Of a stretch of 61,028 bases of DNA, positions 1-27,535 are shown piece after piece. The stretch's first letter is position 1, and each line of letters starts with the position of its first letter. The stretch covers positions 1-61,028 of the forward strand of contig CAZZIE010000007.1 in assembly GCA_964654185.1 (NCBI GenBank), read 5' to 3'. The DNA is from an uncultured Spirochaetaceae bacterium. Its GTDB lineage: Bacteria; Spirochaetota; Spirochaetia; DSM-27196; PWMO01. The translations under genes and the position numbers were made by a program. Below the pieces are notes generated by a model. That model had not been told where the DNA came from. It did not search any database and was given only the letters and a program-made list of their open reading frames with translations.

Positions 1-55
1 TATTATGCGATACGGGATCTGGCCCAGGCAAATCAACAGGGTTGTGGGTAGGTTA
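1..55 (-). repeat. Truncated copy (D) of the ~165-bp terminal-inverted-repeat element family
   Basis: 32-55 (ATCAACAGGGTTGTGGGTAGGTTA) is the exact 24-nt reverse complement of 27371-27394. The rest of the element runs off the window edge. Confidence 0.85.
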
Positions 56-129
56 TATGGGCTCGAAGACTCGCGAGTCGCCGCCATCCGGTGGATGTGA
101 GGCGCTCTAGTAGGGCATGCGAGTTCGAC

Positions 130-408
130 CTATGAAGCCTCAACCGCTTCAGCCCCAATCACAGTATCGCGGAGCTTCTCGACCGCTTCGAGAGCGTCAT
201 TGCGAGACTGGTAAGGCCCTTTCGATACGAGCGTCTCGCCGTCTTCAGCTTGGAGACGGAAGTTGAATGTCCCTCGTTCGTCCGTGTAAACCTCGAATCG
301 CCCGGCCTTCGGTCTGTGATCGAGCATGATTAGGTACCGTTTTTCCGTGTTTGGTCGGAAGAACAGGCCGCGTTTCCCCTTCGAAAAGTTATACTCGTCT
401 TTCATCAC
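130..408 (-). CDS. BrnA-like antitoxin N-terminus fused to a YegP/DUF1508-like domain
   Basis: The N-terminus MKDEYNFSKGKRGLFFRP resembles BrnA-type antitoxins. The C-terminus FEVYTDERGTFNFRLQAEDGETLVSKGPYQSRNDALEAVEKL fits the DUF1508 pattern. It lies directly downstream of brnT. Confidence 0.65.
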   Translation of the reverse strand: MMKDEYNFSKGKRGLFFRPNTEKRYLIMLDHRPKAGRFEVYTDERGTFNFRLQAEDGETLVSKGPYQSRNDALEAVEKLRDTVIGAEAVEAS

Positions 409-412
409 GCCT

Positions 413-703
413 CTAACCCTGAGTATACACCCTGCGCTCGCGCGTCGTCGCCAGCCGGGCAGATATCAGCCTGATTGCTTCATTGGTCGGGTCGCGGTAA
501 GAGCGCGTGTGAACCACGGCAAGCACCCTCCCGCTGATCGACATCCCGACAGTGACCCACCGATCCTCCTCCCTGGAGTGCTCTGGGTCGGGTATGGAGA
601 TGGCGAGTGGGTCGTCGAAGACCGAACTACTCTCCGAGAAACTGACCCCGTGTTTTCGTTGGTTGGCCTTTGCCTTTGTTTCATCCCACTGGTAGGTAAC
701 CAT
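413..703 (-). CDS. brnT: BrnT family ribonuclease toxin (type II TA)
   Basis: The C-terminal 96 aa of ORF 413-1180 read MVTYQWDETKAKANQRKHGVSF...HSREEDRW...IRLISARLATTRERRVY, the hallmark BrnT motifs. ATG at 703. Confidence 0.9.
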   Translation of the reverse strand: MVTYQWDETKAKANQRKHGVSFSESSSVFDDPLAISIPDPEHSREEDRWVTVGMSISGRVLAVVHTRSYRDPTNEAIRLISARLATTRERRVYTQG

Positions 704-737
704 GTTCCGGGAACTCTGAAAGGCTAATTGCTGTCGA

Positions 738-1835
738 TCAAAGCTGCAACACCGCCCCGAGGCAACCACGAAGTTCCTCCAGGGTCGGGAGAGCCCGGGC
801 GCCCTCCCGGGCGACCTGGTGGGCGGAGGCGCAGAGGCCCCACTCGAGGGCCGCGGCTTCCGGGTGACCGCGCATCCGGGCGGCAATGTAGCCGGCGTTG
901 AAGGCATCGCCGGCGCCGACACTGTCCACGACGTCGACGGGATGGGCGGGAAGCTCGGTGAGGGTGCCGTCGCCGCTGAGGAGTGCGGCCCCGTCTTTTC
1001 CGCGTCGGGCGACGACGGTGCGGGACAGGCCACCGGCACCCGTGGCGCTTTCCGGTGCGACGGGGCCCGGCGCACCGGCTTCGGGCGTCCCCGTCCCGCC
1101 CGGGGCTGCGTCCGGCATTGCAACCCGGCCGAGCGCCGCCATTGCGTGCCGCAGGTCGATGCGGTCGGCCCTTGCCGCACCTGCGGCGTCCGCGCCGGTC
1201 AGCGTTTGAACCAGCGGGACGATCTCATCTTCAAGGGAGCCGAAGACCGTGGTGACGTAGGGCAACAGCCTCTGAAGGGTCTCGCGGATCTCGTGGTTCC
1301 AGCCCCAGAACTCCAGGCGCAGATTGAGATCCAGACTGACGGGGATAGCCGCCTCATGGGCAATCCGTGCCGCCTCAATGATGGCCTCCCGGACCGGGGT
1401 GCGGCGCAGGGCGATGCCGGAGGTGTGGACCCAGCCGCAGGCACGGACGGCGTCGGCGGGGACGTCGGCGGGTTCCAGGTGGGCGTGGGCGCCCCCCTCC
1501 GGGGGCCAGACGGTGATGGTGCGGTCGCCGTCGGGGGATATGATGGCGAAGACGCTGACGGTGAAGTCCGCATCCGTGGTCCTGAGCAGAGAGGTGTCGA
1601 TGCCTTCGGCATCCAGGTCCTTCGCCACGAACGCGCCGTACCCGTCCTCTCCGACGGCGCCCGCGAACCGGGCGGGCACCCCGAGGCGGCGAATCCCCAC
1701 TGCCGTGTTTGCAATGGTGCCGCCGCCGTGAAGCTCCGGCGGTGCTACGGGCTCCCCGGGGTGAGCGGGGAGACGGATAATGAGATCGCTGTTCGCGTCG
1801 CCGATTGCCAGAACCGGCTTCATGCCGGCGTTCAC
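738..1835 (-). CDS. PfkB/ribokinase-family carbohydrate kinase
   Basis: GGTIANTAVGIRRLG and VDSVGAGDAFNAG PfkB signatures, with a Gly/Ala/Pro-rich insertion. Confidence 0.9.
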   Translation of the reverse strand: MNAGMKPVLAIGDANSDLIIRLPAHPGEPVAPPELHGGGTIANTAVGIRRLGVPARFAGAVGEDGYGAFVAKDLDAEGIDTSLLRTTDADFTVSVFAIISPDGDRTITVWPPEGGAHAHLEPADVPADAVRACGWVHTSGIALRRTPVREAIIEAARIAHEAAIPVSLDLNLRLEFWGWNHEIRETLQRLLPYVTTVFGSLEDEIVPLVQTLTGADAAGAARADRIDLRHAMAALGRVAMPDAAPGGTGTPEAGAPGPVAPESATGAGGLSRTVVARRGKDGAALLSGDGTLTELPAHPVDVVDSVGAGDAFNAGYIAARMRGHPEAAALEWGLCASAHQVAREGARALPTLEELRGCLGAVLQL

Positions 1836-2749
1836 GGACGGGTCAGCTCTTCGTAGACCGCCAGGGCGGCTTTGGTGCCTTCGCCCAGGGCGACGAGGAT
1901 CTGCTCGAAGCCGACGTTGGTGACATCGCCGGCGGCAAAGATGCCCGGGGCGGTGGTGCGGTTGCGCATGTCCACGATGATGCGGCCGTCATCATCGATA
2001 TCAACTACTTCTCCGGCCATGATGGAGTTGGCTGCAGGTTGCAGTTGGATGAAGAAGGCGTCCGCCTCGTAGGTGCTCTTCACGCCGTCGGCGTCGGCGA
2101 TCACGACGGCGTGGGCGAACTTCTCCCCTTGGAAGGAGACGATGCGGTCGCCGTCGATAAGGCGGACATTCTTCACGGCGGCGAGCTCGCGAAGGTGCAC
2201 GTCGTGGTAGCGGCCGGATGAGCGGAAGAAGAGGAGGACTTCCCGTGCCTGGGCGGCGAGCTCCCGGGCGTCTGCAACGGTGCGCCGGCTGTCGCCGATG
2301 AGGAAGACCCGACGATCCTTCAGGAGGTGCGAGTAGCTGATGGAGGAGTAGCCGAGGCCGCGGCCGGCGAACTCCCGCTCGCCGGGTACGCCGAGGGGCC
2401 GTGGTGTGACACCGGTGGCAATCAGGACGTACCGCGCGTCCAGAACGGAGGTGGTGCCGTCGGCACTTCGCGTCTCGACGCGGCAGCTCTCCTGATCGTA
2501 GGTGATGGCGGTCGCCCGGGCGCTCGTATGGGCGTGGGACAGGTACGAAAGCTGATTGACGTAGTCCTGAACGATCGCCTGGGGCTTGAGGACGCGGTGG
2601 CCCTCCGTGTTGGGAATCGAGAGCCCCTGGTAGGCCTTGCCGCCGAGGTCCGGGGAGACCACCATGACGTCAATGCCCTTGCGCAGGGCGTACATGGCCG
2701 CGGCGAGACCTGCGGGGCCGCCGCCAAGGATAATCAGGTCATGCATCAC
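1832..2749 (-). CDS. Thioredoxin-reductase-like FAD oxidoreductase lacking the CxxC motif
   Basis: ILGGGPAGLAAA, IATGVTPRPLGVPGEREFAGRG and TTAPGIFAAGDVT. The CxxC position reads YSSISY. Confidence 0.8.
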   Translation of the reverse strand: MMHDLIILGGGPAGLAAAMYALRKGIDVMVVSPDLGGKAYQGLSIPNTEGHRVLKPQAIVQDYVNQLSYLSHAHTSARATAITYDQESCRVETRSADGTTSVLDARYVLIATGVTPRPLGVPGEREFAGRGLGYSSISYSHLLKDRRVFLIGDSRRTVADARELAAQAREVLLFFRSSGRYHDVHLRELAAVKNVRLIDGDRIVSFQGEKFAHAVVIADADGVKSTYEADAFFIQLQPAANSIMAGEVVDIDDDGRIIVDMRNRTTAPGIFAAGDVTNVGFEQILVALGEGTKAALAVYEELTRP

Positions 2750-4104
2750 ACTACCCCGTCCGGCGCGGGAATGTGACCGCGCTCCATCATGTCCCGGGTA
2801 ACATCGCGGGAGCGGCGGATCATCTGGTCCGCCTGCGTCCGCAGCTCTTCGCTACTCCGGTGGTGCCGCGCGATTCCCTGGTCCATGGCGGTCTCCGCCA
2901 CGGCGACGGCAACATCCACGAAGACGCTCCAGTCCTCCATTGTTGGGAGAATGTGATCGGGCCGCAAGGAATCGCCGACGTTCTTCGCCAGCGCTTCCGC
3001 GGCGGCGTAGCACATCTCATCGGTAATGGTCGTGGCGCGGACATCCAGGGCGCCCCGGAAAATCCCCGGAAAACAGAGGCTGTTGTTCACCTGGTTGGGA
3101 AAGTCGGACCGTCCGGTCGCGATGACGGCGGCGCCGGCCTCTTCCGCCTCCCAGGGCCAGATCTCCGGGACCGGATTGGCGCAGGCAAAGACGATTGGAT
3201 CCTTCGCCATGGCGGAGACCCACTCCGGCTGAATGGTGCCGGGCCCCGGCGTCGCCAGGGAGATGACCACGTCGGCCCCCTTCATGGCTTCGGCAATGCC
3301 GCCCTCTTCGCCGGCGGTGTTGGTTTTTGCGCAGAGCTCCCACTTCTCCGGGTACTCGTTCCGGCGCCCGGCAATGTCCTCCCGGTGGGAACCGAGAATA
3401 CCCTTGCTGTCGACGACCAGGCACCTGCCCGGGTCGGCGCCGCGCCCGAAGATGAGGCGGGCGCACGCCACGTTCGCCGCGCCGGCGCCAATGAAGGCGA
3501 TCCGCACACTGCCGATTTCCTTGCCGACCACGCGCAGCGCGTTCAGCAGCCCCGCCAGGGTCACCGTCGCCGTGCCCTGCTGGTCGTCGTGCCACACCGG
3601 GATCTCCGCCCGGCGCCGCAGCGTTTCGAGAATGCGAAAGCACTTCGGCTGGGCAATATCCTCCAGGTTGATGCCCCCGAAGGTGGGCTGCAGGAGCAGG
3701 ACCGTGCGGATGATCTCGTCGGGATCTTTTGTATCAAGGACGATGGGTACGCTGTCCACGCCGCCGAGGTAGCGATACAGGAGGGCCTTTCCCTCCATGA
3801 CCGGGAGCCCCGCCTTCGGTCCAATGTCGCCGAGACCGAGGACACGGCTGCCGTCGGAGACGACCGCCACGGTGTTCCACTTGTTGGTGTAGTCGTAGAC
3901 CTTCTCGGGCTCTTCGTGAATCGCCTTGCACGGGCCCGCTACGCCGGGAGAGTACCAGAGGGAGAAGTCCGAGAGATCCCGAACCACGCACTTCGGCACC
4001 GTCTCCATCTTCCCGCGGTAGAATTCGTGCAGCTTCACCGAGTCTTCCTGCGGCTTCTGCGCCTGCCGGAGGCGTTCGTCATCAGGGGGGTGCTCGTTGC
4101 TCAT
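2746..4104 (-). CDS. NAD(P)-dependent malic enzyme (short type)
   Basis: [48 protein letters not shown] and DFPNQVNN motifs. Confidence 0.95.
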
Positions 4105-4646
4105 TGGGACGCCATTGCCTTCTGTGCGTACTCGGCGTAGTTCCGGGCCGACTCGGCCAGGTAGTCGATCTCTTCCTTTGTGAGCTCCCGGATCGGTTTG
4201 GCGGGAATGCCGCCGTAAAGCATGTGGCGCTTCACCCGGGTCCGCGGGGTGACCACGGCGCCGGCGGCTACCATCGACTCAGATTCAATATAGGAGTGGT
4301 CCAGGAGCGTCGCGCCGATACCGATCAGACAGCGGTCCTCAATGGTGCAGCCGTGCAAGGTAGCCTTGTGTCCCACGGTCACCTCCCGCCCGATGTGGGT
4401 GAGGGTTCCCCCGTGAGGTCCGTGGACCATGCAGTCGTCCTGGATGTTGGTGTAGGCGCCGATCTCGATGCGGCAGACATCTCCGCGCATCACGGTGTTG
4501 TACCAGATGCCGGTGTGCTCGTGCAGGCGGATGTCGCCGACCAGGGTGACGCCGGCCGCGACGAAGGAGGTTTCGTGAATGGTCGGGAGAATTCCCTCGT
4601 AGGCGAGAAGGCGCGCGCCGAATCGGGCGGGATCATGTTCAGCCAT
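4101..4646 (-). CDS. Gamma carbonic anhydrase family protein
   Basis: Hexapeptide repeats with RGD, TNIQD, H...H(K)ATLHGC and a YAE tail. Confidence 0.9.
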   Translation of the reverse strand: MAEHDPARFGARLLAYEGILPTIHETSFVAAGVTLVGDIRLHEHTGIWYNTVMRGDVCRIEIGAYTNIQDDCMVHGPHGGTLTHIGREVTVGHKATLHGCTIEDRCLIGIGATLLDHSYIESESMVAAGAVVTPRTRVKRHMLYGGIPAKPIRELTKEEIDYLAESARNYAEYAQKAMASQ

Positions 4647-5031
4647 GCGGGCGCTCTCGCTCGTGCTCGAAACGGGCGACGAAATCCCGGGAGGTCACGT
4701 AGTTCGTCGTACCGATGAGTTCACCGTCCCGGTAGTACAGGACGAACGGAATCTCCGCGTTACCGAGACTCTGTTCCTTGAACCGGCGGAAATCGTCGAA
4801 GAAGCCGACCTTGTCGTAGAGGAACTGGTACACGGTGATGTCCGTGTCCTCCGGTCGCTCGCGCTTCTCCATGAAGTTCAGCCAGACGTTCATGGAGACC
4901 CACTGGGGGCACCATCCCTGGGTGAGCACCACTGCCACATTCTCACCGTCGGCGCGAACCGCCTCGTCCAGCTCGCCGTCGCGCATCCACGCCTTTGCCT
5001 GGTCGTCACTCAGCGTCTTTCGTCGAAGCAT
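4639..5031 (-). CDS. Thioredoxin-fold-like protein with a single-Cys WCPQW motif
   Basis: VAVVLTQGWCPQW and EIPFVLYYRDGELI resemble the Trx fold. Start set at MLRRK; the ORF overlaps the next gene by 8 nt. Confidence 0.55.
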   Translation of the reverse strand: MLRRKTLSDDQAKAWMRDGELDEAVRADGENVAVVLTQGWCPQWVSMNVWLNFMEKRERPEDTDITVYQFLYDKVGFFDDFRRFKEQSLGNAEIPFVLYYRDGELIGTTNYVTSRDFVARFEHERERPHG

Positions 5032-5117
5032 TGCTACCCTCTTCCCTGCGCTCTGTACCATACCATGCACTGCCGCCGCTGCCAAATCTGGCGAAGCACG
5101 ATATGATAGATGCCGCC

Positions 5118-6206
5118 ATGAGCCGCGACCACATGAGCGAGACACTGCGCCGCGCCGCCGAGATCACCGCCCGACCCGGAGAGATCCGCGCCGCCGCGCG
5201 CCTGGTTGCCGGTGACGGCACGGTCCTGGCGGAGGTCGCCGGTGCGCTGCCTCGCCTCCCGGGCTACCCGGCGAGCCTGCTCCCGGACTCACCGGCCACA
5301 CCGGACGCACCGGACTCACCGGTGGGCATGAACGGGGCCACCCTCTACGTAACGGTGGACCCCTTCGATCTTCCCGCTACGCTTCGCCATGGCGGTGCCC
5401 CGACAAGGGGCGACCAGTCTGCGGCAGACGGCGCCGCCGGACCCGATGCGGCCGCGACGGCGCAGCGTATTGCCGACGCCGGTGTGGCCCGGGTGCGCAT
5501 TGCCATGCCGCCGCTCGCGCTGCTGAGTCGGGGGGCGCACCTTCCAGAGGACGCGGTCGAAGCGGACGCGGCGGACGCCACCCCGCTTGGGGAGGCGCTG
5601 GCCCGCGCCCGAGTCGCCGTGGAGCTGGGGGTATGCGGTCCGGAGGCGCTGATCTTGAACGAGGCTCCGATCGTCGGCGCCCTCCGGGGTGCACCGTTCA
5701 CGCATCTCTTCGTCGTGCAGACCCTCGACGGCCGACGCCTTCGCTCGGATGCGTATTCGGCGGCGGTCATCGCCCTCAGAGACGCCGTACACCGGCGGTA
5801 CGACCGCGTCGTTGGCGCTGATCCATCGCCGGAGGCGGATCCTGATGCGCCCGTCCTGACCGACCTCGTGGCGCGAGACGACTGGGATCGGCTCACCGTG
5901 GCCACGCTTCCCCGGGTGTTCGGGAACGGCGCGGAAACCATCGGCGACATTGGGGTGCGGGAGTTGGCGGACGTGAAGCGCCTCGAGAAGGCCGTGTGGT
6001 GGACCCTGGACGGGGTCGTGGCGGTGAGCGGATATCGCGCCCCGGAGGAGACCTTCGGATCGGCGGCGGCGCGTCTGATTCGCGAAGCTTCACCCCTCGT
6101 CTACCTGCCGGGTAGCACCGGTGATTTCGCTGCTCCCCGCAAGGAAAGTGTTCTCTCTATCCTCGATCGGCGGCGGAAGCCCTCCTCACACACCAACTCG
6201 CCATAA
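5118..6206 (+). CDS. Degenerate RibD-like deaminase/reductase homologue
   Basis: ATLYVTVDPF, AGVARVRIAM and VAVELGVCGPEALILNE...GAPFTHLFVVQTLDGR follow the RibD layout. The HAE and PCxxC zinc ligands are absent. Confidence 0.6.
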   Translation: MSRDHMSETLRRAAEITARPGEIRAAARLVAGDGTVLAEVAGALPRLPGYPASLLPDSPATPDAPDSPVGMNGATLYVTVDPFDLPATLRHGGAPTRGDQSAADGAAGPDAAATAQRIADAGVARVRIAMPPLALLSRGAHLPEDAVEADAADATPLGEALARARVAVELGVCGPEALILNEAPIVGALRGAPFTHLFVVQTLDGRRLRSDAYSAAVIALRDAVHRRYDRVVGADPSPEADPDAPVLTDLVARDDWDRLTVATLPRVFGNGAETIGDIGVRELADVKRLEKAVWWTLDGVVAVSGYRAPEETFGSAAARLIREASPLVYLPGSTGDFAAPRKESVLSILDRRRKPSSHTNSP

Positions 6207-6368
6207 CCTGCTAAGAACCCTGTTGATGAGATTCCGGCAAGTCACGCTGCAAAGGAAGGTTACGCGGCTGTAGACTCGTGAAGGAGGTTTCGGACGGTCT
6301 GCCGCCGCCAAGCCATGCGGCTGTAGCACTTTATGGGATGCGCCATCAACAGGGTTCCGAGTACGTTG
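6204..6368 (+). repeat. ~165-bp TIR element, copy A
   Basis: Left arm TAACCTGCTAAGAACCCTGTTGATG (6204-6228), right arm CATCAACAGGGTTCCGAGTACGTTG (6344-6368), 115-nt core. Confidence 0.9.
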
Positions 6369-6442
6369 CTGGTGTCCAAAATTTATGACTGATTCGGTAA
6401 AATTCGCAGTCAACGGCAAAGTCCACTTGCTATCTTCGACTC

Positions 6443-7807: not shown

Positions 7808-7925
7808 GACGGCCGACCCCGGGGCGGTCCGGTAGCGGGCCGGGGGCCGGCCTCGCGCGGGGCCCGTGGCCGCCCGGTTTGCTTTGCACGGGGCGACTTG
7901 ATCTCCGACCCCGCGCCGGGTCGGT

Positions 7926-9158: not shown

Positions 9159-9195
9159 TTTCGGGTCGCCGCTGCCGGTCCGTTACGGCCGGGGC

Positions 9196-9816: not shown

Positions 9817-9827
9817 GTACCTGCAGC

Positions 9828-11027: not shown

Positions 11028-11045
11028 GAACGTCCCTCCGTATGA

Positions 11046-16288: not shown

Positions 16289-16307
16289 CTGGATCCCGGG
16301 CGGTGCC

Positions 16308-16916: not shown

Positions 16917-16920
16917 GGGT

Positions 16921-17040
16921 GCGCCGCGCCCGGCGAACAGCCGCGGCGCCGCGAACAACCGCGCCGATCCGGGCAGCACCCGCGGCGCGGCGGCGCGAAA
17001 AGCCGCGACCATCCGCGCCGGTCCGGGCAGCACCCGCGCC
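16921..17040. repeat. GC-rich direct repeats between convergent genes
   Basis: A 26-bp CCGCGCCGRTCCGGGCAGCACCCGCG-type unit at 16959 and 17013 (one mismatch), plus three GCGAA(C/A)A(G/A)CCGCG units. Confidence 0.7.
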
Positions 17041-17046
17041 CGCGAG

Positions 17047-18528
17047 CTACTGCGCCGGGGCGGCGTACTCCTTCCGGGGCCGGCCGGCCCGGGTGCGGTT
17101 GAGGAGCTCCGCCCGCCGCTCCGGCGTCTGGAACTGGAAGAGGCTCTCGTAGCCCTCTCCCCACTTGTACCATCGTGACTCCGGATCGTTAATGATTTCC
17201 TCCCAGATGGGATCCGCCAGGCTGCGGTACTTCTCCGCGTAGTTGTCGATCCACTTCACCGTCTCGGGATCCTTGATCAGATCCTCCGAGTGATCGTGCC
17301 CGTGTGGTACCAGGTACTCGTTGACCGCGTCGCGGAGGACGTCGGGGTTGTCAATGATCATGCAGGGAGCGCGCAGGTTGGCGTTGTCGTTGTAGGGGAA
17401 GCGACTGCGGATGTACTTGAAGAACTTCGAGTTCATGGCGTCGAAGAGTGAAGTGTTCCTGATATTGTCGGCGCTGAAGTGGGCGAAGACGCAGGGCTCC
17501 ACGTTACCGTTGTTGAGGACGTGCATGTACCCCTTGCCGCCGGCCATGCATCCGTTCACCGAGTCGCCGTCGTTCCAGAAGTCCGCCAGGAAGATTGGAT
17601 GCCTGGCCCGGAGCTCCCGGACCCGCCTGGCGCTGTAGACGCGCTGCTCCGGCGTCGGGACCAGATCCAGGATCGGGTCCTTACCGACGGGCATGAACAT
17701 GAAGTACCAGCCGAAGATGGCGCCCTTGTCCAGGAAGTACTCGACGAACTCGTCACTGAGGATCGAGTCCAGGTTGTATTGCGTCTGAGTGACGCTGATC
17801 CCGAACATGACCCCGTCCTCCCGGAGGTTCTCCATGGCGGTGAGGACCTTGTTCCACACGCCTTTGCCGCGGCGCTCGTCGGTCTCTTTCTGCCACCCCT
17901 CGACGCTGATGGCGGGGGCGACGTTGCCGAGCTTGCCGAGCTTCTTTGCAAGCTTCTTATCGAAGTAGGTCCCGTTGGTGTAGGTGAGGAAGAACATGTC
18001 GTTGTACTTCTTGAACATCTTCAGGAGGGTGTCCTTGATGAAGTAGGGCTCACCACCGGAGACGACAATGAAGTAGATGCCCAGATCGCGCGCCTGAGAG
18101 AGGACGCTGTCGATCTCATCCTCGGTGAGCTCGATCTGCTTCGTATACAGCCCCGAGTAGCATCCGGTGCACTTGAGATTGCAGCGCATCGTGGGGCTGA
18201 TAACCAGCACGGCGGGAACCATGTTCCCGTCGACGCTCAGCTCGTCGCGGCGCGCCTTCCCCTTGATGAAGGAGTTGTAGATGAGGTTGCGGGCAAGATT
18301 CTTCTTGTACGACTTGCTTGTCTCCGAGCCGATCCGCAGGAAGATTTTGGAGAAGTTCGTCTCCTCCTCGAGACTCCGGCGGAGATTGCCCACGAAGAGA
18401 TCGACATCGCGGGTAAGGTTCAGCTTCGATGTTGCCCCAATGAGCTGCTCGAGGTTCTCTCGTCGTCCGGTCAGACTCTTCTTGAGTCTGTTGACGACAA
18501 ACTTTTCAGCTAACGCAGAACCAGCCAT
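17047..18528 (-). CDS. Radical SAM protein with a SPASM/twitch-like C-terminal region
   Basis: CNLKCTGC (CxxxCxxC), VSGGEP, YTNGT, GCMAGG and VEPCVF. Confidence 0.9.
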   Translation of the reverse strand: MAGSALAEKFVVNRLKKSLTGRRENLEQLIGATSKLNLTRDVDLFVGNLRRSLEEETNFSKIFLRIGSETSKSYKKNLARNLIYNSFIKGKARRDELSVDGNMVPAVLVISPTMRCNLKCTGCYSGLYTKQIELTEDEIDSVLSQARDLGIYFIVVSGGEPYFIKDTLLKMFKKYNDMFFLTYTNGTYFDKKLAKKLGKLGNVAPAISVEGWQKETDERRGKGVWNKVLTAMENLREDGVMFGISVTQTQYNLDSILSDEFVEYFLDKGAIFGWYFMFMPVGKDPILDLVPTPEQRVYSARRVRELRARHPIFLADFWNDGDSVNGCMAGGKGYMHVLNNGNVEPCVFAHFSADNIRNTSLFDAMNSKFFKYIRSRFPYNDNANLRAPCMIIDNPDVLRDAVNEYLVPHGHDHSEDLIKDPETVKWIDNYAEKYRSLADPIWEEIINDPESRWYKWGEGYESLFQFQTPERRAELLNRTRAGRPRKEYAAPAQ

Positions 18529-18764
18529 TGCTTCCTCCTTCTCACAAGCGTACCAGGCTCTTTCAACATGTCGTTCGGTCGACGTGGATGCCGCCCGGCC
18601 GACGTGGTGCCTCCTTATGTGTATACGAAAAGGCTATCACCGGCCGACGGACTCACGAATAGGCCGTGTAGTCTATTCTGCGACAACTTCCGGAATGACG
18701 AACGCAGAATCTTGCTCCGCCGCGTTGACACGACGGCAAATATGCGTAGCGTGAAGGCGAAGCC

Positions 18765-19922
18765 ATGGCAGCAGAACGAGATAGACAGACACGCGGCTCT
18801 TTGGCACGCGGCTCCTTTTCGAGCGGCTCCTTCGGACGCACATTCTTCATTGTCGTACTCCTGGCGGTGACCGCCCTCGTTGTGGTGATTGTCCGGCGCT
18901 TCCTCATGGCTGCCCTCCTGGCGGCGATTACCGCGGCCCTCTTCTACCCGTTCTACCGCTTCTTCGAACGGCGCATTCCAATTCGGCGACTTGCCGCCCT
19001 GGTCGCGCTCATACTTGTCATCGTGGTATTCGTCGTGCCCCTGGCGGCCTTCGCATACCTGGCGGTCGACACCGTCGCCGGCTTCATGCAGAACCTGCAG
19101 GAGGGGTCGGCCCCGGTCCGCAACGAGGTCCGACAGGTCGTGGAAGCGGTCATGGAGTGGCCGATCTTCAGGCGCTTCGACATCGACCCGGGAGATATTG
19201 TTCAGAACCTCCTTGCAGGCCTGAACGTCGTGGATGCACAGTTGCTCACCAGTGTGCGCTCGGTGGTTCAGTCCGTCGGGGCGACGGCGCTGAACATCTT
19301 CATCTATGTGTACAGCCTCTACTTCTTCTTTCGGGACGGACCGACGCTTCTGAGGCGGATCTTCGAGCGCATTCCCATGCGCCGGCAGGATAAGGACGTG
19401 CTCTTGGAGAAGTTCGTCACCGTCACCCGCGCGACCATCAAGGGCACCATCATCATCGGCATCTTCCAGGGCGCCATCGGCGGACTTGTCATGTTCGTTC
19501 TCGGACTGCCCGGCGCGGTGGTGTGGGGGGTGCTCCTCTTCTTCCTGGCGGCCATCCCCAACTTCGGCGCAATTCTCGTCTGGCTGCCGGCGTCCATCTA
19601 CCTCTTCCTCACCGGCGCCATTGCCCGGGGCATCCTCATGGTCGCCCTCGCCGGCGGACTCCTGGCGGCGGTGGACTACCTGCTCCGCCCGCGCCTCATT
19701 GAAGAGGACATCCGGGTGCATCAGCTCCTTGTCCTCTTCAGCGTGCTCGGCGGCCTCATTGTCTTCGGCGTATTCGGCCTCATCCTCGGGCCCATCATCA
19801 TGGCCGTCTTCGTCAAGATGTGGGAGATCTACGGCGACCTCTTCCACCATGAGATCGAAGCTGCCGAGCATCCCGCAGTCTCATCTCAGGAAGAGCATGA
19901 ACCTCCGGAAGATCATGAATAG
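18765..19922 (+). CDS. AI-2E family transporter
   Basis: Multi-TM protein with DYLLRPRLI and FGVFGLILGPII motifs. Confidence 0.9.
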   Translation: MAAERDRQTRGSLARGSFSSGSFGRTFFIVVLLAVTALVVVIVRRFLMAALLAAITAALFYPFYRFFERRIPIRRLAALVALILVIVVFVVPLAAFAYLAVDTVAGFMQNLQEGSAPVRNEVRQVVEAVMEWPIFRRFDIDPGDIVQNLLAGLNVVDAQLLTSVRSVVQSVGATALNIFIYVYSLYFFFRDGPTLLRRIFERIPMRRQDKDVLLEKFVTVTRATIKGTIIIGIFQGAIGGLVMFVLGLPGAVVWGVLLFFLAAIPNFGAILVWLPASIYLFLTGAIARGILMVALAGGLLAAVDYLLRPRLIEEDIRVHQLLVLFSVLGGLIVFGVFGLILGPIIMAVFVKMWEIYGDLFHHEIEAAEHPAVSSQEEHEPPEDHE

Positions 19923-20556: not shown

Positions 20557-20605
20557 TCCACCTGTAAAATGGGTGTCCAACCACACCGCGGGAGGAGCAG
20601 TCTGC

Positions 20606-21370
20606 ATGCCCTATCTACATCTGCTGGGAACCGGCGCAGCCATGAGCGATCCACACCGTACTGTCACCATGCTCGCCCTCGAGGATGAGCATGACCTCTA
20701 CCTCATCGACTGCGGTGGCGACACCATTCAGCGCCTGCTCCTGCTCGGAACGCCGCTGGAGAAGCTTCGCGGCGTGGTCATCACGCATGAGCATCCCGAC
20801 CACGTGGCCGGGTTCCCCCTCCTCATGGAGAAGCTCTGGCTTGCCGGACGGCGCGATCCGGTGGATGTGTACGGCATTGAGCCGGCGCTGGGAACGGCAG
20901 ATCAACTCCTGGCTACCTTCGATACCTCCGGATGGGAGGGCATGCCGGAGATCCGCTGGCATGAGGTCGCCCATGAGCCCGGCGCGGCCGTTCTGTCGGA
21001 GGGCCCCTGGACCATGACGGCGGCGCCCGGCATTCATTCGGTTCCCGTCGTCGGGCTGCGAGTAGGGTACCAGGCCGGAGAGAACGAGATGCCGCGCGTC
21101 CTGGCGTACTCCTGCGACACCGAGTACGCCGACGACATTGTCGAACTTGCCTCGGATGCGGACGTGCTGGTGCATGAGGCGACCGGCCCCATGGAGGGGC
21201 ACAGTAGCGCGCGGGATGCCGCGGCGGTTGCCTCCCGCGCGACCTGCGGCCGCCTGCTTCTGGTGCACCTCCCGCCGGCGGCATCACTTACCGACGAGAT
21301 GATCACTCAGGCCCGCGGTATCTTTGCCAACCTGGACCGAGGCCGCGAAGGGGGAACCTATCCATGGTAG
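20606..21370 (+). CDS. MBL-fold metallo-hydrolase (RNase Z-like)
   Basis: LLGTG, LIDCG, ITHEHPDHVAG, YSCDT, LVHEAT and LVHL. Confidence 0.85.
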   Translation: MPYLHLLGTGAAMSDPHRTVTMLALEDEHDLYLIDCGGDTIQRLLLLGTPLEKLRGVVITHEHPDHVAGFPLLMEKLWLAGRRDPVDVYGIEPALGTADQLLATFDTSGWEGMPEIRWHEVAHEPGAAVLSEGPWTMTAAPGIHSVPVVGLRVGYQAGENEMPRVLAYSCDTEYADDIVELASDADVLVHEATGPMEGHSSARDAAAVASRATCGRLLLVHLPPAASLTDEMITQARGIFANLDRGREGGTYPW

Positions 21371-21404
21371 TCCGGGAGCCGGTGGTTGAAGGAGAGGAAC
21401 GAGC

Positions 21405-23129
21405 ATGAAACGAATAATCGACGCATTGACCCGACGCTACGATGAACGGGACCTCCTGGTGCGCCGGCGCGCACGTCTCTTCGTGGTGGTGGTGTTCATC
21501 ATTGCGCTGCTGACCATCCTCAACTTCGTGAGTGAGGTGGCTCTCGGGACAACGGACCTCGGCTCCGTTCTCGGCAATATCGCTCTGATCGTCGTCTACA
21601 TTGTCACGGTTGTGATCATGGCGAGTGGCCGCTACCAGCTCGCAACGACGATCTTCCTGCTTTTCACCATTGCCGGCGTTGCCCTGACCGTTCTCACACT
21701 CCCCGAGGTGAATGCAACGACGAGCTACCGGATGGCCGCGGGGCTGCTCCTCCCGCTTGTTGCGGCGGCGGTCGTGGCCTTGCGATATTACCAGGTCATC
21801 CTTTCGGGGGCTCTCGCCGTGGGCCTTCACCTCTACTTCCATTTCGCAAGGATCGTGCCCGCCGTGCAGGGGCCGGCCGCCGCGGACGTCCTGGGCTCGA
21901 CCCTTGTGTATCTGATCGTTGCTACGGTTCTCGTGGTGGCGGCGGTGTGGATGACCCAGCGGCTCATGCAAACTGCGGAAGAGCAAACCGACGCGAGCCG
22001 CACACGCCTCGAGGAGATGCAGACTCTGGTGGCGACTTCAGAGGAGGGCTTCCGGGTCGGCGCTTCAGTCCAGCAGGAAATCCAGGCGGTTCGCTCCAGC
22101 ATTGAGCAGGTCGAGCGCACCATGCGCTCCCTCCGGGATCGCATGCAGGACCTTGCCACACGGCATGACGGTATCCGCAACGCCAACCAAGCAGTCGCCG
22201 AGGCGACCGCGACGGTGAAGCGCGTCGTCATGGATCAGAACAGCGCCACCGAGGAGAGCTCCGCCTCCATTGCGGAGATGGCCGCATCGATTCGCAGCAT
22301 CGACGAGGTCGCGCGCTCCAAGAAGAGCCTTGCCGACGGTCTCGCCCAGACCGCCCAGGAAGGGCAGACCCAGATGGACGAGTCCGTCGAGGCGATTGCG
22401 AGTCTCGCCGACAAGGTTTCCGAGATCTCCGACGTCGTAGGGGTGATCGAGAGCATCAGCGAGCAGACCAGCCTCTTGTCCATGAATGCCGCCATTGAGG
22501 CGGCCCACGCCGGCGAGCACGGCCGCGGCTTCGCCGTGGTGGCGGAGGAGATTCGAAAGCTCAGCGAGAACACCAGCGAGAACACCCACCGCATTGCCGA
22601 TACCATCAGCAGCATTGTCGAGCAGATCCGCCACACCCGGGAAACCAACAGCGAGGCCGGTGGCTACTTCCAGCGTATCACCAAAGAGATCTTCGACGTC
22701 CGGGACGCCATTGACGAGATGATCAGCGGTCTCGGGGAGCTTTCCACCGGTACCGGAGAGATGGACAAGGCGGTTCGCAGCCTCGTCGACGGGAGCCGCA
22801 CCGTCGACTCAACAATTGACGATGTCGACGGCAAGATCAAGGACAGCAACCAGGACATTGAGCAGCTCACCACCTACTCCACGCAACTCCTCGAAGAGGT
22901 CGACCAGGTCGTCTCGGAGGTCGAGCGCATTGAGCAGTCGGCCAACACCCTGGAGCAGATCGGCCGGCGCAATGTGGAGCAGCTCAAAGGCTTCGAGGAG
23001 AAGCTGAACAGCATAACCGGCGGCCGCGCCGGCGCGGACGACCGTGTCGGCGGCCCGGACGGCCGCACCACGGCGCCTGCCGGCACTCAGGAAGGTGAAT
23101 CGGAGGAGACGGGGATCCGCCTGGCGTAG
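21405..23129 (+). CDS. Methyl-accepting chemotaxis protein
   Basis: Multi-TM N-terminus, and [36 protein letters not shown]. Confidence 0.95.
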
Positions 23130-23207
23130 CCGCGCGGTTAAGCCAGGCGGCGGGCTGGTGCGGCGGGGCACCGCAGCTGCAGGCCGGGGCGGTCCGCCCG
23201 GCGGGTC

Positions 23208-24098
23208 TCAACCCCGAAGGCGCAGCAGGGCATCCCGCAGACGGTCGGGGAGAGGTGCAACCAGCCGCGCCGCCAGGCGTGCATCGGGACCGACAAGGTA
23301 GCGTGTGCGGGGTCGACGCGCCGTGAGCGCCCGGGCAACAACGCGCGCTACCGCGTCCGGCCGGATGCCCCGGTTCGGGGCCCGCTCGGCGTGGACGATC
23401 GCCTTCGTGATGCGGTCACCGTAGAGGGTCGTCGCCTCCACCGGCATCTGCTGCTGCATTGCGCGACCCGCCTCCAACGCCTTGTCCCAGAGGGGCGTAC
23501 GCACCGTTCCCGGCTCTACCGCCGCAACCCGGATTCCCTGCCGCTCCACCTCCATTCGCAGTGTGTCCGTCAGGCTCTCGACGGCAAACTTGCTCGCCGT
23601 GTAGGGCCCGCTCGGGCTGAAGGCAATCCGCCCGCCGATCGAGCTGACGTTGACCAGCCGCGCCCGGCGGTACCGCCCGGGCACGTCGCCACCGGCGCCG
23701 CTCCGTACCGTCGCCACATACTGCCGTAGCAGCGGCAGACAGAGCTGAGACATGGCCACCAGGGAGAACACGTTGACCTCGAACTGCCGGCGCAGCTCCT
23801 CGATTGGAACAAACTCGATCGGCGCCGCCAGGGCAATCCCGGCGTTGTTGACCACCCCGTAGAGCCCCGCCTCCCCGGCAAGCTCAGCAATGTGCTCCAC
23901 CGCTGCGCGCCGCGCGGCCTCATCGGTGACATCAAACACAAGGGGATGAATGCGCCGCGGCTCAGTCGCCGCCATCTCCGCCGCATCTTCCTCTCGCCGC
24001 ACCCCTGCAAAAACCGTGAACCCGCGGTTTGCCAGCTCATGCACCGTCGCCAGCCCAATGCCCTTCGACGCCCCCGTCACCAATACGTGCCTGGTCAT
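23208..24098 (-). CDS. SDR family oxidoreductase
   Basis: VTGASKGIG, VNNAGI, NVSSIGG and YTASK. Confidence 0.92.
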   Translation of the reverse strand: MTRHVLVTGASKGIGLATVHELANRGFTVFAGVRREEDAAEMAATEPRRIHPLVFDVTDEAARRAAVEHIAELAGEAGLYGVVNNAGIALAAPIEFVPIEELRRQFEVNVFSLVAMSQLCLPLLRQYVATVRSGAGGDVPGRYRRARLVNVSSIGGRIAFSPSGPYTASKFAVESLTDTLRMEVERQGIRVAAVEPGTVRTPLWDKALEAGRAMQQQMPVEATTLYGDRITKAIVHAERAPNRGIRPDAVARVVARALTARRPRTRYLVGPDARLAARLVAPLPDRLRDALLRLRG

Positions 24099-24140
24099 CT
24101 GCGCTTCCTCGCCGCCCGCCCCGGATCGGCGGCCGGACAC

Positions 24141-24169
24141 AAAAAAACCGGGCACCGCAGTGCCCGGTT
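24141..24169 (-). terminator. Rho-independent terminator
   Basis: On the minus strand AACCGGGCAC-TGCG-GTGCCCGG followed by a T7 tract, downstream of 24201-25472. Confidence 0.85.
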
Positions 24170-24200
24170 CAAGTATACGTCTTCTACAACGCTGGAGGGT

Positions 24201-25472
24201 CTACCAGAGGAGTCCGACGTTCAGACCCAGGCTGAGGCCGGGCCCCCGGTCTTCCTCCAGCGGGAAGTACACCGCTGCAGGGACATCGATCTTGAAGGGC
24301 CCAAGGTTGAATGCAGTTCCGAAGGTGATCCGCGGATTGAGAAAGGCGGGCTGGCTGCTGCTCACCTGACTCAGGGTGATGGAACCGCCGTTGGCGGAGA
24401 GATAGTCGCTTTCACCGAGGTAGCCGGTGACTTCCGCGCTTCCCTCCCCTTCGATAGCAATGTCCGATGAGCCGCCGAGGGAGAGGTCCACGCCTGCACC
24501 AAGGCTGAAGTCGAAGAGCCAGAGCAGGCGCAGTGCCGTAGCAACCTCAATGGGGATGGTCAGCGCGCGGTTTTCGACGCTGAGGCGCGCCTCCGGATTC
24601 AGCAAAACAGTTCCCAAGTCGGTTCCCGAGGGGTAATTCGTCGGATCTTGGTTTTCGAGGGCGATGTCCAGTTGCTCCAGATCGCCACCCTCGGTCAAGC
24701 CGAGTTGCTCTTTCGTAAGGTTGGCTTCGAAGCTTCCCTCTTCAAGGATATCCCCGACGGGAATTCCGATGCCAACACCGCTGCTGTGCAGAACGGCGCC
24801 GGCGCCGACGCTGATTCCCCGAAAGCGGATGGGACCGTTGGGCCAGAGATTGCCGACCAGGAGGTAGTTCAGGAAGCCGCCGACCGATCTGGACTGGATG
24901 TCGGCGGTAACGCCCTCTTCAATGGGAACGGACACGTCAATGCTGCCGAACTTGCCCGATAGGTAGAGCCCGTCAATGAGGAAGTCCATGCTGAGGCCCA
25001 GGGAAGCAGCCCAGGTCTGCCAGGCGCCACCAATGGCGGCGTTGTTGCCGAGCGCCTCATAGAGAGCTGCCGTAGGATCGGTGGCGTCCGCGGAGATTTC
25101 AACTGCCGGCAGCTGAACGCCGATGTTGGTCCCCGCAGCCAGGTAGAAGCTCTGGTAGTCGGTGTATGACCGCAGGGTGGCGACATTCGTGGCAAAGATC
25201 CCCGCATTGGCAAAGGCCCCTGCGAGATTGCTCAGGTCGGGCAGTTGGCCCAGTGCTTCGTCGGCGGAGGAAACCGCGCCGTCTACCTGGGTTGCCAGCT
25301 TGGTGTTGACGGTGTTTTCCCAATCGTTGATATCAGTCTGAGTGATTCCGCCCTGATCTGCGAGGGAATCATCGATCTCGATGCTCGGGTACGTGCCGAC
25401 CGTCACCTGTGCCGTGGCAACGGAAGCTCCAAGAAGCGCCAAAACTATTGCTATTGTCACTATTCGTTTCAC
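24201..25472 (-). CDS. Secreted, probable outer-membrane beta-barrel protein (spirochaete Lsa36-like family)
   Basis: GTG start with a GAGGAG RBS, signal peptide, AGAFANAG motif, alternating beta-strands and a C-terminal Trp. The family name is from recall only. Confidence 0.55.
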   Translation of the reverse strand: MKRIVTIAIVLALLGASVATAQVTVGTYPSIEIDDSLADQGGITQTDINDWENTVNTKLATQVDGAVSSADEALGQLPDLSNLAGAFANAGIFATNVATLRSYTDYQSFYLAAGTNIGVQLPAVEISADATDPTAALYEALGNNAAIGGAWQTWAASLGLSMDFLIDGLYLSGKFGSIDVSVPIEEGVTADIQSRSVGGFLNYLLVGNLWPNGPIRFRGISVGAGAVLHSSGVGIGIPVGDILEEGSFEANLTKEQLGLTEGGDLEQLDIALENQDPTNYPSGTDLGTVLLNPEARLSVENRALTIPIEVATALRLLWLFDFSLGAGVDLSLGGSSDIAIEGEGSAEVTGYLGESDYLSANGGSITLSQVSSSQPAFLNPRITFGTAFNLGPFKIDVPAAVYFPLEEDRGPGLSLGLNVGLLW

Positions 25473-25627
25473 AACAAAACTCCTCGTGCCCCGGGTCGTT
25501 CGCCTGGAGCTGTTCTCCTGTGTTTCAAACATAGCCCTGTAGCGAGCATATATCAAAGTGACGGGATGCGGAAGGAGAAGAACCTGAAACGGGTCTGGGA
25601 ATTCCGCGAAGCGTGTCGCAAAAGGGC

Positions 25628-25666
25628 GGGCGCCGACCGGTCCGGGCGCCGACCGGTCCGGGCGCC
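25628..25666. repeat. 16-bp tandem repeat GGGCGCCGACCGGTCC (about 2.4 copies)
   Basis: Read directly from the sequence, immediately left of element B. Confidence 0.75.
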
Positions 25667-25676
25667 GGGCGAACTC

Positions 25677-25842
25677 TAACGTACTCAGAACCGTGTTGAT
25701 GGCCCGAGAGCCAGCTCCTTTCGGGACCGAGAGATAAGCAGCCGGTCGCAGGTAAAGGGACGCCTGACATGGCGGGGTCCTCGCAACACCTTTCGACCGC
25801 GGCGGATACGCCGGAGCCATCAACACGGTTCTGAGTAGGTTG
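25677..25842 (-). repeat. ~165-bp TIR element, copy B
   Basis: Arms TAACGTACTCAGAACCGTGTTGATG (25677-25701) and CATCAACACGGTTCTGAGTAGGTTG (25818-25842), 116-nt core, flanked by the direct repeat GGGCGAACTC. Confidence 0.9.
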
Positions 25843-25868
25843 GGCGAACTCCTCCTTCCGCCGACACA

Positions 25869-26288
25869 TTACCGCGCGGGGCGGATCTCGTAGTCGTAGG
25901 TGATGGTGGCGCCGGTGCGGAGCATCTCGCCGACGGAGCAGTACTTGTTCACCGCGAGGTCGAGGGCGCGGGCGGCCTTCGCCTCGTCGACGGGGCCTAT
26001 GAGCGTGAAGTGGAGGTGGATCGCGGTGAAGGGAGCGGGAGACGTGTCGGGGCGAGTGCCGTTGACATCGATCTCAATGTCTTCCAATCCGGCCCGCTGC
26101 TTGCGCAGGATTTCCACGAGATCCATGGAGGCGCAGGTCGCAAGGGCGGCAAGGAGGGTTTCCATGGGGCGCAGGCCGGCGCCTTCGCCGCCGATGGCCG
26201 GGGCGCCGTCGATGTGGATTTCGGCGCCGTCTGTGTTGCGGGCGACGAAGTGGACGCGGTCGTTGGCGCGGTGGAGTGATACGTTCAT
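25869..26288 (-). CDS. OsmC/YhfA family protein
   Basis: RPMETLLAALATCASMD...AVNKYCSV. Confidence 0.9.
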   Translation of the reverse strand: MNVSLHRANDRVHFVARNTDGAEIHIDGAPAIGGEGAGLRPMETLLAALATCASMDLVEILRKQRAGLEDIEIDVNGTRPDTSPAPFTAIHLHFTLIGPVDEAKAARALDLAVNKYCSVGEMLRTGATITYDYEIRPAR

Positions 26289-26306
26289 GGGTCTTTCATA
26301 GTAAAA

Positions 26307-26323
26307 TCGACTTACTCAGTCAA
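26307..26323. promoter_or_regulatory. Rrf2-family (IscR/CymR-like) operator candidate
   Basis: TCGACT-N5-AGTCAA near-palindrome between the divergent osmC-like gene and cysM. It matches the YYGACT-N5-AGTCRR core of IscR type 1 sites. Confidence 0.5.
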
Positions 26324-26371
26324 CTAAGTGAAGACTTGCTGGGGCGATGTGAATTGGCTACCCTGACACTC

Positions 26372-27373
26372 ATGAACATCAAGACCATTGAAGAGTGTGT
26401 CGGCAACACGCCGCTGGTGAAGCTGCAGCGACTCTATCAGGGCGCCAACACGGTGCTCTGCAAGCTGGAAGGGGACAACCCCGCCGGGTCGGTGAAGGAT
26501 CGGCCCGCCCTCAGCATGATTCGCCGCGCTGAAGAGGCGGGGCGAATCAAGCCCGGGGACACGCTGATTGAGGCGACGAGCGGCAACACGGGCATTGCGC
26601 TGGCGATGGTTGCGGCGGCGCGAGGCTACAAGATGGTCGTGATCATGCCCGAGCACATGAGCGAGGAGCGCCGCGCGGTCATGCGCGCCTACGGCGCCGA
26701 GCTGATCCTCACCTCCAAAGAGGGGAGCATGGAGGAGGCCATTGATACGGCGCGGCGGATGGAGTCGGAGGGCCGCGGCGTGATCCTGGACCAGTTCTCC
26801 AACCCGGACAACCCGCGCGCCCACTACGAGACGACGGGGCCCGAGGTGTGGCGGGACACGGACGGTCGGATCACGCACTTTGTGGCATCGACCGGGACGA
26901 CGGGCACGCTGATGGGAACCTCCCAGTACTTGAAGGAGCAGAACCCGGACATCCGCATTGTCGGGGTTACTCCGGACGCCGAAGGCGGCATTCCGGGGAT
27001 CCGCAAGTGGCCGAAGGAGTACGAGCCGCGGATCTTCGATGAGTCGCGTCTGGACGAGCGGCGGCAGGTCGGCCGGGAAGAGGCCGTCGCCATGATGCGC
27101 GCCCTCGCCCGAGAAGAGGGCATCTTCGGGGGCATTTCCTCCGGGGGGAACGTTGCCGTGGCGTTGCGGCTGGCCCGGGAGCTCGAGGTGGAAGGCCCTG
27201 CGCCGGCGGCCCGCCACGGGACGGGCGCCAGTGGGGCGGGTGCCGGCAGGACGGGTGCCGGCAGGACGGGTGCCGGCGGGGCAGGATCCCCCCGGACGGG
27301 CTCCGAGGGGGCGGTGATCGTGACGGTGATCTGTGATCGGGGAGACCGCTACCTCTCAACGGGCCTCTTTTAA
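26372..27373 (+). CDS. cysM: Cysteine synthase B (O-acetylserine sulfhydrylase)
   Basis: KLEGDNPAGSVKDR, EATSGNTG, GTTGT, PGIRKW, EEGIFGGISSG and CDRGDRYLSTG. Confidence 0.93.
   Translation: MNIKTIEECVGNTPLVKLQRLYQGANTVLCKLEGDNPAGSVKDRPALSMIRRAEEAGRIKPGDTLIEATSGNTGIALAMVAAARGYKMVVIMPEHMSEERRAVMRAYGAELILTSKEGSMEEAIDTARRMESEGRGVILDQFSNPDNPRAHYETTGPEVWRDTDGRITHFVASTGTTGTLMGTSQYLKEQNPDIRIVGVTPDAEGGIPGIRKWPKEYEPRIFDESRLDERRQVGREEAVAMMRALAREEGIFGGISSGGNVAVALRLARELEVEGPAPAARHGTGASGAGAGRTGAGRTGAGGAGSPRTGSEGAVIVTVICDRGDRYLSTGLF
27238..27277. repeat. In-frame 15-bp tandem repeat within cysM
   Basis: GGGTGCCGGCAGGAC about 2.7 times, encoding GAGRT repeats. Confidence 0.85.
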
Positions 27374-27535
27374 CCTACCCACAACCCTGTTGATGCCGTA
27401 GCGGGTAACTCACGGTGGCGCAGAGGCTTCGCCGTTTCTGCGGGCTGGATGCATGCGTATCGTGTTCGCAAGGCGCCAACGTCTGCTGATGCAAGGCGTT
27501 GGGCCGCTCCCATCAACAGGGTTCTGAGTACTTAA
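27371..27535 (+). repeat. ~165-bp TIR element, copy C
   Basis: Arms TAACCTACCCACAACCCTGTTGATG (27371-27395) and CATCAACAGGGTTCTGAGTACTTAA (27511-27535), 115-nt core. Confidence 0.9.

Follow-up and report, generated by a model that had tools for sequence, protein, structure and literature searches.

A miniature transposable element of an uncultured spirochaete and its placement at gene 3' ends and stop codons

We analyzed a 61,028-nucleotide stretch of DNA from an uncultured Spirochaetaceae bacterium, referred to here as the window. It is contig C7 of a metagenome-assembled genome (G000; 4.85 Mb in 368 contigs, 63% GC, 94% complete). Our subject is a set of short sequences, designated A, B, C and D, that are bounded by terminal inverted repeats (TIRs) and lie next to the 3' ends of genes. 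The core sequence AACCCTGTTGATG and its complement occur eight times in the window compared to 0.9 expected; the occurrences bracket A, B and C, while D is partial at the contig start. A preliminary description of this DNA had treated all four as elements of one kind. We identified A, B and C as copies of a non-coding MITE (miniature inverted-repeat transposable element), an ordinary kind of object, and found that D is the right end of a longer insertion sequence (IS), the parent of the MITE (Table 1).

Table 1. Positions in the window of the elements and of the genes that adjoin them
Feature	Position	Strand	Remarks
MITE copy A	6204-6368	+	AACC..GGTT core of 163 bp at 6205-6367; outside bases T6204 and G6368
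MITE copy B	25677-25842	-	164-bp core at 25678-25841; between tandem minus-strand genes
Target-site duplication of B, left copy, GGGCGAACTC	25667-25676		
Target-site duplication of B, right copy, GGGCGAACTC	25842-25851		
MITE copy C	27371-27534	ambiguous	Profile scores of 75 and 82 bits; nearly symmetric
D, right end of the parent IS	1-55	+	Cut by the contig start
CysM gene	26276-27373	+	PALP by Pfam; NF008735 CysM, E = 1e-141; stop from element C
OsmC-like gene	25869-26288	-	PF02566; retains its own stop; upstream of B
Open reading frame	4995-6206	+	Conserved; no Pfam family; stop supplied by element A

The open reading frame (ORF) upstream of A, with a start at 4995 or 5103, ends in a TAA composed of T6204 and of A6205-A6206 of the element. 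The TAA of cysM (27371-27373) likewise consists of the first bases of C, and in both cases we confirmed what the preliminary description had stated. It had also placed C correctly between convergent genes but overlooked that the TAA at the other end of C (27532-27534) is the stop codon of the minus-strand ORF 27532-28080; both terminal TAAs of C are in use as stops. The two remaining distances had been given accurately as well: the OsmC-like stop (25869-25871) is followed by B after 26-27 nt, and 74 nt separate the outer end of D (position 55) from the stop of ORF 130-408 on the minus strand. Our searches confirmed OsmC, CysM (PALP) and BrnT, whereas the ORF called “ribD-like” had no Pfam match. 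Profile scores (nhmmer) oriented A (126 bits on the plus strand compared to 44 on the minus strand) and B (78 bits on the minus strand compared to 47 on the plus strand). D contains the last 16 codons of the transposase gene described below (1-48, YYAIRDLAQANQQGCG), the stop codon TAG (49-51), the TIR (31-54) and a terminal A (55).

The MITE family and its probable parent insertion sequence

Pairing of cores across G000 gave 54 complete elements, and a nucleotide profile (nhmmer) detected at least 64 full-length copies, which are dispersed singly. The distance from AACC to GGTT is exactly 163 bp in 58 of 63 core-anchored copies, and there is usually one further T or A on each side of the core. 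The 24-nt TIR, (T)AACCTACCCACAACCCTGTTGAT, is conserved in all copies, with the outer 24 nt reading AAC(C/G)TACYCRSAACCCTGTTGATG. Its tip reads T-AA and a TGA follows at TIR positions 20-22, so that two of the three reading frames that can enter the element are closed at once. Further inside, a few symmetric positions are conserved: CAA at 34-36 and TT at 56-57 (GTTGC at about 55-59), mirrored at 106-107 and 127-128. The remaining interior differs widely between sub-families, and no conserved ORF was found in these elements of 163-165 bp.

A perfect target-site duplication (TSD) of about 9 bp flanks nine of the 63 copies, B included; one of the nine, on contig C1, was read as 8 bp. A search for the longest flanking repeat (8-12 nt) recovered the same duplications. 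No TSD was recognizable around A. On contigs C175, C176 and C67 the flanks match over 9 bp, but the outer bases that adjoin AACC and GGTT, T and A, are not the same on the two sides. All copies are most simply and uniformly read as having a 9-bp TSD around an element with the tips T-AACC...GGTT-A. The differing outer bases led us to reject a TA or TAA target duplication in the style of IS630 or Harbinger elements, which the TAACC...GGTTA tips had suggested. Copies that lack a TSD are presumed to be old.

Three copies at separate loci (contig C9 at 46732, C17 at 38067 and C176 at 3125) are 100% identical to one another. Those on C17 and C176 have perfect 9-bp TSDs and the one on C9 does not. 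The right flank of the C9 copy, AGAGCAGGCG, is similar to the duplication at the C17 copy, AGAGCCGGCG.

Some 30 contigs carry, about 30 nt from their end, a variant of the core that ends in GATT; it is followed by two kinds of inner sequence. The first extends over 105 nt and leads to a Shine-Dalgarno sequence with an ATG, which opens a frame beginning MPTPTYCPNPACP. The second, when read in reverse, encodes a protein terminus ...WRKGQEGTTVRIPYYAIRDLAQANQQGCG whose stop codon lies inside the TIR; positions 1-51 of the window are exactly this transposase C-terminus. IS ends were found at 31 contig ends in all, with the right end, like D, counted at 16 and the matching left end at 14. The two types are thus the two ends, left and right, of an IS of about 1.35 kb whose body the short-read assembler left unplaced. 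The k-mer depth on the IS-type TIR was about 200-280, compared to about 5.7 for unique flanks in run X1 (runs X1 and X4; loci L058 and L063). This excess of about 40- to 50-fold suggests some 40-50 TIR ends in the population, which is above the number in the assembly.

The IS ends carry a TIR identical to that of the MITE. In addition, each MITE arm resembles the left end of the IS to about position 60, including the CAA at 34-36 and an AGTTGC at 54-59. This resemblance accounts for the conserved interior positions of the MITE and for its fixed length around a freely varying center. The family is therefore non-coding and below 300 bp, has TIRs and TSDs of fixed length, is present in many dispersed copies and has its TIRs in common with a transposase-encoding IS, and these are among the features by which MITEs are recognized.

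An intact paralogue of the transposase is encoded on contig C53 of G000 (17831-19021, 396 amino acids) and is bounded by TIRs of its own (approximately CCACAACCTTGTGGGTTTG). It matched no Pfam family, and its only NCBIfam matches, to IS1 and ISL3 models, were below threshold; the IS1 model NF033558 scored 19.3 bits over residues 37-153 (cut-off 100, E = 8e-4). At least 295 homologues of the paralogue were found in metagenomes, most of them with a length of about 389 amino acids and located on contigs of 1.2-2 kb. AlphaFold, supplied with 34 homologues, gave a confident model with a mean predicted local distance difference test score (pLDDT) of 86 and a predicted template-modeling score (pTM) of 0.89. 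Its best matches in the PDB were the transposase of ISCth4, of the IS256 family (E = 4e-4, template-modeling score just 0.27), and retroviral integrases. D124, D214 and E271 are invariant among the 34 homologues and are predicted to form the catalytic triad. Since the model has an RNase-H fold and no family scored above its cut-off, the parent transposase is a DDE enzyme of RNase-H fold outside the named families, and the C53 paralogue is a candidate for an unclassified family of DDE insertion sequences.

By sequence, the best relative of the parent transposase, albeit a weak one, is the IS1 family. The two have in common a 9-bp TSD (seen here for the MITE) and, in the protein, a DDE domain preceded at the N-terminus by a CxxC...CxxC zinc finger. 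Unlike IS1, the parent has one unbroken ORF of about 390 amino acids with no frameshift, no Pfam domain and different TIRs, and at 19 bits it falls far short of the cut-off of 100. ISCth4 is the best match among solved folds, and it too is weak.

Position, orientation and age of the copies

Genes were called with our own codon-usage log-odds caller, trained on long ORFs with high GC content at third codon positions, which gave 4183 genes and a coding fraction of 90%; within the window its gene calls were plausible. Fifty-nine copies had two callable neighbors. Twenty-three of these lie between convergent genes, 31 between tandem genes and 5 between divergent genes, compared to 8.7, 41.6 and 8.7 expected from the intergenic regions of the genome (p = 1e-6). 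Counted by element ends, 80 of 122 face a stop codon and 42 face a start codon (p = 7e-4).

The stop-facing ends are concentrated at a single distance. Within -40 to +60 nt, 23 of 76 stop-facing MITE ends are at -2, where the stop codon consists of the tip T and the first AA of the element, while a uniform distribution predicts 0.75 (p ~1e-27). Positions 0 to +10 together hold 19 MITE ends, or about 1.7 each. At least one neighbor's stop codon lies inside the element in 30 of the 63 copies, and in five, C among them, those of both neighbors do. The TGA at TIR positions 20-22, which closes the second frame (frame c), is in use at three to four MITE ends and at one IS end (at -22). Similar results were obtained for the IS: 20 of its 31 ends face stops, and 10 of these 20 are at exactly -2. 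In contrast, the position 3 nt further downstream, which keeps the native stop, is about 15 times rarer than -2 (2 compared to 23 for the MITE and 0 compared to 10 for the IS).

The genes that end at -2 are full length, as all 13 that could be assessed reach the ends of their NCBIfam profiles. They encode RecO, TIGR02757, an IolO-like epimerase, MntR and CrtD at IS ends, and PatB, SauS, Gnd, AroFGH, MTAP, FumC/AspA, a YqaB-type phosphatase and a short AlaRS at MITE ends. The alignments end about 1-3 residues before the end of the profile (8 for RecO), and the proteins carry at least roughly that many residues beyond. These full-length genes rule out pooled C-terminal truncations as the source of the peak at -2. 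The TAA of the element is the stop codon of full-length neighbors at a third of the stop-facing MITE ends and at half of the stop-facing IS ends, and we regard this precision of placement as unusual.

Three recent copies at -2, each with a TSD (on contigs C17, C85 and C1), have the native stop codon (TAA, TGA and TGA, respectively) directly after the second copy of the TSD. This indicates that the element inserted immediately 5' of the native stop and that the TAA of the TIR took its place. A stop codon at that native position is still seen in 5 of the 23 copies at -2, compared to 1.1 expected (p = 0.004). TSD-bearing copies (3 of 9), old MITE copies and young IS ends (10 of 31) have about equal shares at -2, an observation that speaks against slow survivorship.

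Orientation gave a different outcome. The preliminary description had distinguished the two arms by an AACCT end and an AACGTAC or AAGTAC end, and had proposed that the AACCT end always faces the stop of the upstream gene. This distinction is not a property of the family: arm position 4 is C on both arms in 38 of 63 copies, G on both in 4, and one of each in 21. Among those of the 21 that lie between tandem genes, the AACCT end pointed toward the stop in nine and toward the start in five (p = 0.42). We also defined orientation by the whole profile, as the plus-strand minus the minus-strand score (typically 30-85 bits apart); in tandem contexts, 15 copies had their left end toward the upstream stop and 16 their right end (binomial p = 1.0). 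The C/G state at position 4 was independent of the orientation so defined (11 compared to 10). The orientation of the copies relative to neighboring genes is random, which refutes a fixed orientation by the criterion that the preliminary description itself had set. As to orientation-specific targeting of 3' ends, which had been suggested on the basis of the window, the positional half is borne out by the excess of stop-facing ends and the hot spot at the stop, while the orientational half is not.

A covariance model detected members of the family, 141-170 bp long, in 23 of the 61 related genomes, spread over several families of the order. The model was needed for the relatives, as exact-pattern scans gave no match, either for the TIR in all species genomes or for the left end of the IS in metagenome contigs. 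In G003 and G010, a stop lies at -2 or 0 at 8 of 40 element ends. In G038 the TIR is a variant one, with ORFs terminating within it in each of the three frames. How strong the stop effect is, and which exact form it takes, varies with the TIR variant. The transposase family is widespread and unnamed in Pfam and NCBIfam, and its MITEs are distributed over an order of uncultured spirochaetes; knowledge of the family aids the annotation of those fragmented assemblies and explains their fragmentation.

The three copies of the window differ in their histories. C is present at the orthologous site of the congener G002 with 85% identity; the cysM stop there is TGA, while the other stop is still TAA. 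C is therefore older than the split between G000 and G002 and has persisted. It also occurs in a contig of a relative from a different sediment metagenome (run X4), with about 92% identity over the piece compared; all 18 listed substitutions in C are in its interior, with none in the TIRs, and they are denser than in the adjoining gene. On the other hand, A is absent from the orthologous sites of G001-G003, and B from the orthologous intergenic region of G002. At about 70% identity the flanks in the congeners are too diverged for base-level alignment, and what these comparisons establish is the absence of the elements. Together with the three identical copies at separate loci, this absence is an indirect sign of mobility. 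A search of the metagenome contigs for empty sites or population polymorphism recovered no empty site, the contigs having a depth of about 5x and breaking at the TIR.

In run X4, a 332-nt contig of a relative with about 97% identity matches window positions 5933-6217 until 14 nt into the left TIR of A and then continues with unrelated sequence (GACAATATGAAGAACC...). It may represent a solo-TIR remnant or a rearrangement at the site of A.

Explanations for the placement at stop codons

The explanation that we consider very probable as a whole is that the MITE is moved in trans by the transposase of the IS, that it inserts in random orientation, and that the pile-up at stops is mainly a matter of target preference. 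The MITE, having no coding capacity, would most likely be mobilized by the DDE transposase of the co-resident IS of about 1.35 kb, and its insertion duplicates 9 bp of the target. The transposase would prefer the boundary between an ORF and its stop, where the TAA of the element replaces the native stop of a full-length gene. Purifying selection would then clear other intragenic insertions, and a 3' hairpin or any other effect on the mRNA would be a by-product.

Several observations weigh against this explanation. The IS was not assembled in full, with about 140 nt of the left end and about 215 nt of the right end available, and the link between transposase and MITE, although most likely, is drawn from common TIRs and arm similarity. 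When the flanks of the 31 IS ends were paired across contigs to rebuild sites as they were before insertion, no TSD pairs were found among them. A TSD is lacking in 54 of the 63 MITE copies, one of which is 100% identical to two copies that have one. A logo of the targets showed only a weak R at TSD position 2 and a weak Y at position 8, and no motif that would explain how stops are found. In G038, recent (TSD-bearing) copies are less tightly placed around stops. Finally, the gene calls come from our own caller and not from a benchmarked program.

It could be argued that insertion is essentially random and that the pile-up at stops arises from selection alone, in that the TAA of the element makes this one intragenic landing harmless and that stops once captured resist deletion. 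The genome is 90% coding, and the TIR closes two of the three entering frames, or in G038 has ORFs ending in it in all three. In addition, many copies at -2 are old and without a TSD, and C predates the split between G000 and G002. However, insertion 3 nt further downstream is equally harmless to the protein and yet is hardly seen, and entry in frame c adds just about 7 residues and yet accounts for very few ends. The pattern is about as frequent at young IS ends and in MITE copies with a TSD as it is in old MITE copies, and the proteins are not truncated. We consider selection alone rather unlikely. The rarity of that downstream position and of frame c and the age-independent share at -2 favor target preference by the transposase as the cause of the hot spot, and we lean somewhat toward this answer.

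In its most specific form, target preference would mean that the family picks stop codons with nucleotide and frame precision, inserting directly 5' of the native stop and substituting its own TAA; this proposal is a tentative one. If true, the IS and its MITE would colonize a 90%-coding genome without altering proteins, by a mode of target choice that has not yet been described. Target choice, as opposed to selection, would be a new answer to the question of how transposons locate safe places to insert when the genome is dense in genes. The words “stop codon” do not occur in a 2024 review of prokaryotic MITEs.

Another possibility is that the elements are a selected, orientation-specific RNA module of the 3' untranslated region (a stabilizer, an RNase III/E site or a terminator) comparable to the ERIC sequences of Yersinia; the effects of ERIC on mRNA stability depend on orientation (PMC2229807). 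Each copy can form a long hairpin, with a mean minimum free energy of -70 kcal/mol compared to -52 kcal/mol for shuffled sequences (z = -4.6), and the copies are enriched at gene 3' ends. Nevertheless, this is improbable. Orientation is random, and the interior changes faster than the adjoining coding DNA. RNAalifold kept only six invariant TIR pairs, with zero compensatory change and no conserved fold in the interior; the folds of individual MITE copies differ. A search of Rfam gave no match on the elements, at the gathering threshold or at E <= 5. The parent IS, which is not palindromic, is placed at stops likewise, and placement is therefore independent of the hairpin. The sequencing runs that contain this DNA are all DNA metagenomes. 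Single copies could serve as terminators by exaptation and are candidates for such a role; nothing that we observed requires a role at the mRNA level.

That the arrangement in the window, four of four, is chance without biological meaning is very improbable. The earlier estimate for chance was 1 in 8, and the orientation component is indeed chance. Position, however, is highly non-random across the genome both in gene context and at -2, and stops at or overlapping element ends are also found in G003, G010 and G038.

We give practically no credence to the proposal that the elements are integron attC-like sites inserted in fixed orientation by a tyrosine recombinase: a variable center between conserved inverted ends AAC...GTT is common to both, and B with its flanks (GCCCAAC...GTTAGAG) matches RYYYAAC...GTTRRRY at 13 of 14 positions, but B alone has this pattern and A reads CCATAAC...GTTGCTG, the match of B being specific to one insertion site because its outer letters are the TSD; the 94%-complete genome has no integron integrase (intI; the best TIGR02249 match is 80 bits compared to a cut-off of 265, and generic tyrosine recombinases give such sub-cut-off matches in all 14 control genomes too); and the copies have 9-bp TSDs, are single, dispersed and in either orientation with no co-oriented cassette array, and carry the same TIRs that bound an IS encoding a DDE transposase.

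Known systems and neighboring sequences

The closest parallel is MITEAba12 of Acinetobacter, which is associated with ISAba12; 90% of its copies are 113 bp long and 40% retain 9-bp TSDs (PMC6382973). Like the spirochaete MITE, it is short and non-coding, contains internal stop codons and has TIRs identical to those of a co-resident IS. Uniform length is common among MITEs, and that of MITEAba12 is as uniform as here, where 92% of copies are at 163 bp, and TSDs are likewise kept by a minority (14% here). On the other hand, the sequences are unrelated and the transposase is a different one (ISAba12 being a named IS), and MITEAba12 is AT-rich, has 16-nt TIRs and prefers AT-rich targets. One of its copies has joined the 3' end of a gene in a fusion that truncates the protein by 398 amino acids (PMC6382973), whereas the genes here are full length, and no hot spot at stop codons has been reported for it.

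The Correia or NEMIS elements of Neisseria have TIRs of about 26 nt and duplicate a TA target, compared to 9 bp for the spirochaete MITE. They too are MITEs (about 100-155 bp) that form long transcript hairpins, are abundant beside genes and are co-transcribed with them (PMC2229807). In contrast to the family described here, they have an IHF site and promoters and demonstrated processing by RNase III. No parent IS is known for them, and their TIR has not been reported to serve as a neighbor's stop codon at such frequency. The ERIC (or IRU) sequences of enterobacteria are also imperfect palindromes of similar size in transcribed intergenic regions. They differ in the dependence on orientation mentioned above, and the present family is unrelated in sequence, randomly oriented, flanked by TSDs and associated with a parent IS. 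QMITE2 of Coxiella burnetii, in the passage of PMC10969869 that cites it, is a MITE found mainly in the 3' untranslated regions of ORFs, and is not described there as replacing a stop codon or as frame-precise.

Some further features of the window adjoin the elements. D is directly followed, in a stretch of lower GC content (130-727, minus strand), by a BrnT-family toxin gene (416-727) and a DUF1508 ORF (133-408) in the antitoxin position. Next to the left TSD of B there is a direct duplication of GGGCGCCGACCGGTCC (25629-25662), which accounts in part for the difference in length from the orthologous spacer of G002.

The CysM protein ends with the family motif DRYLSTGLF. The inverted repeat of C seems to extend into both flanking genes (GGGCCTCTTT and GGGGCTCCTTT); we judged this extension to be coincidental, as GLF is the native C-terminal motif of CysK/M. 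Just before DRYLSTGLF, 15-nt tandem repeats within cysM (27219-27278) encode an insert rich in Gly, Ala and Arg that is shorter in G002. A second tandem array, of 17-nt repeats close to GGCCAGCCCCCGTGGGC, occupies about 116 nt at 36246-36361.

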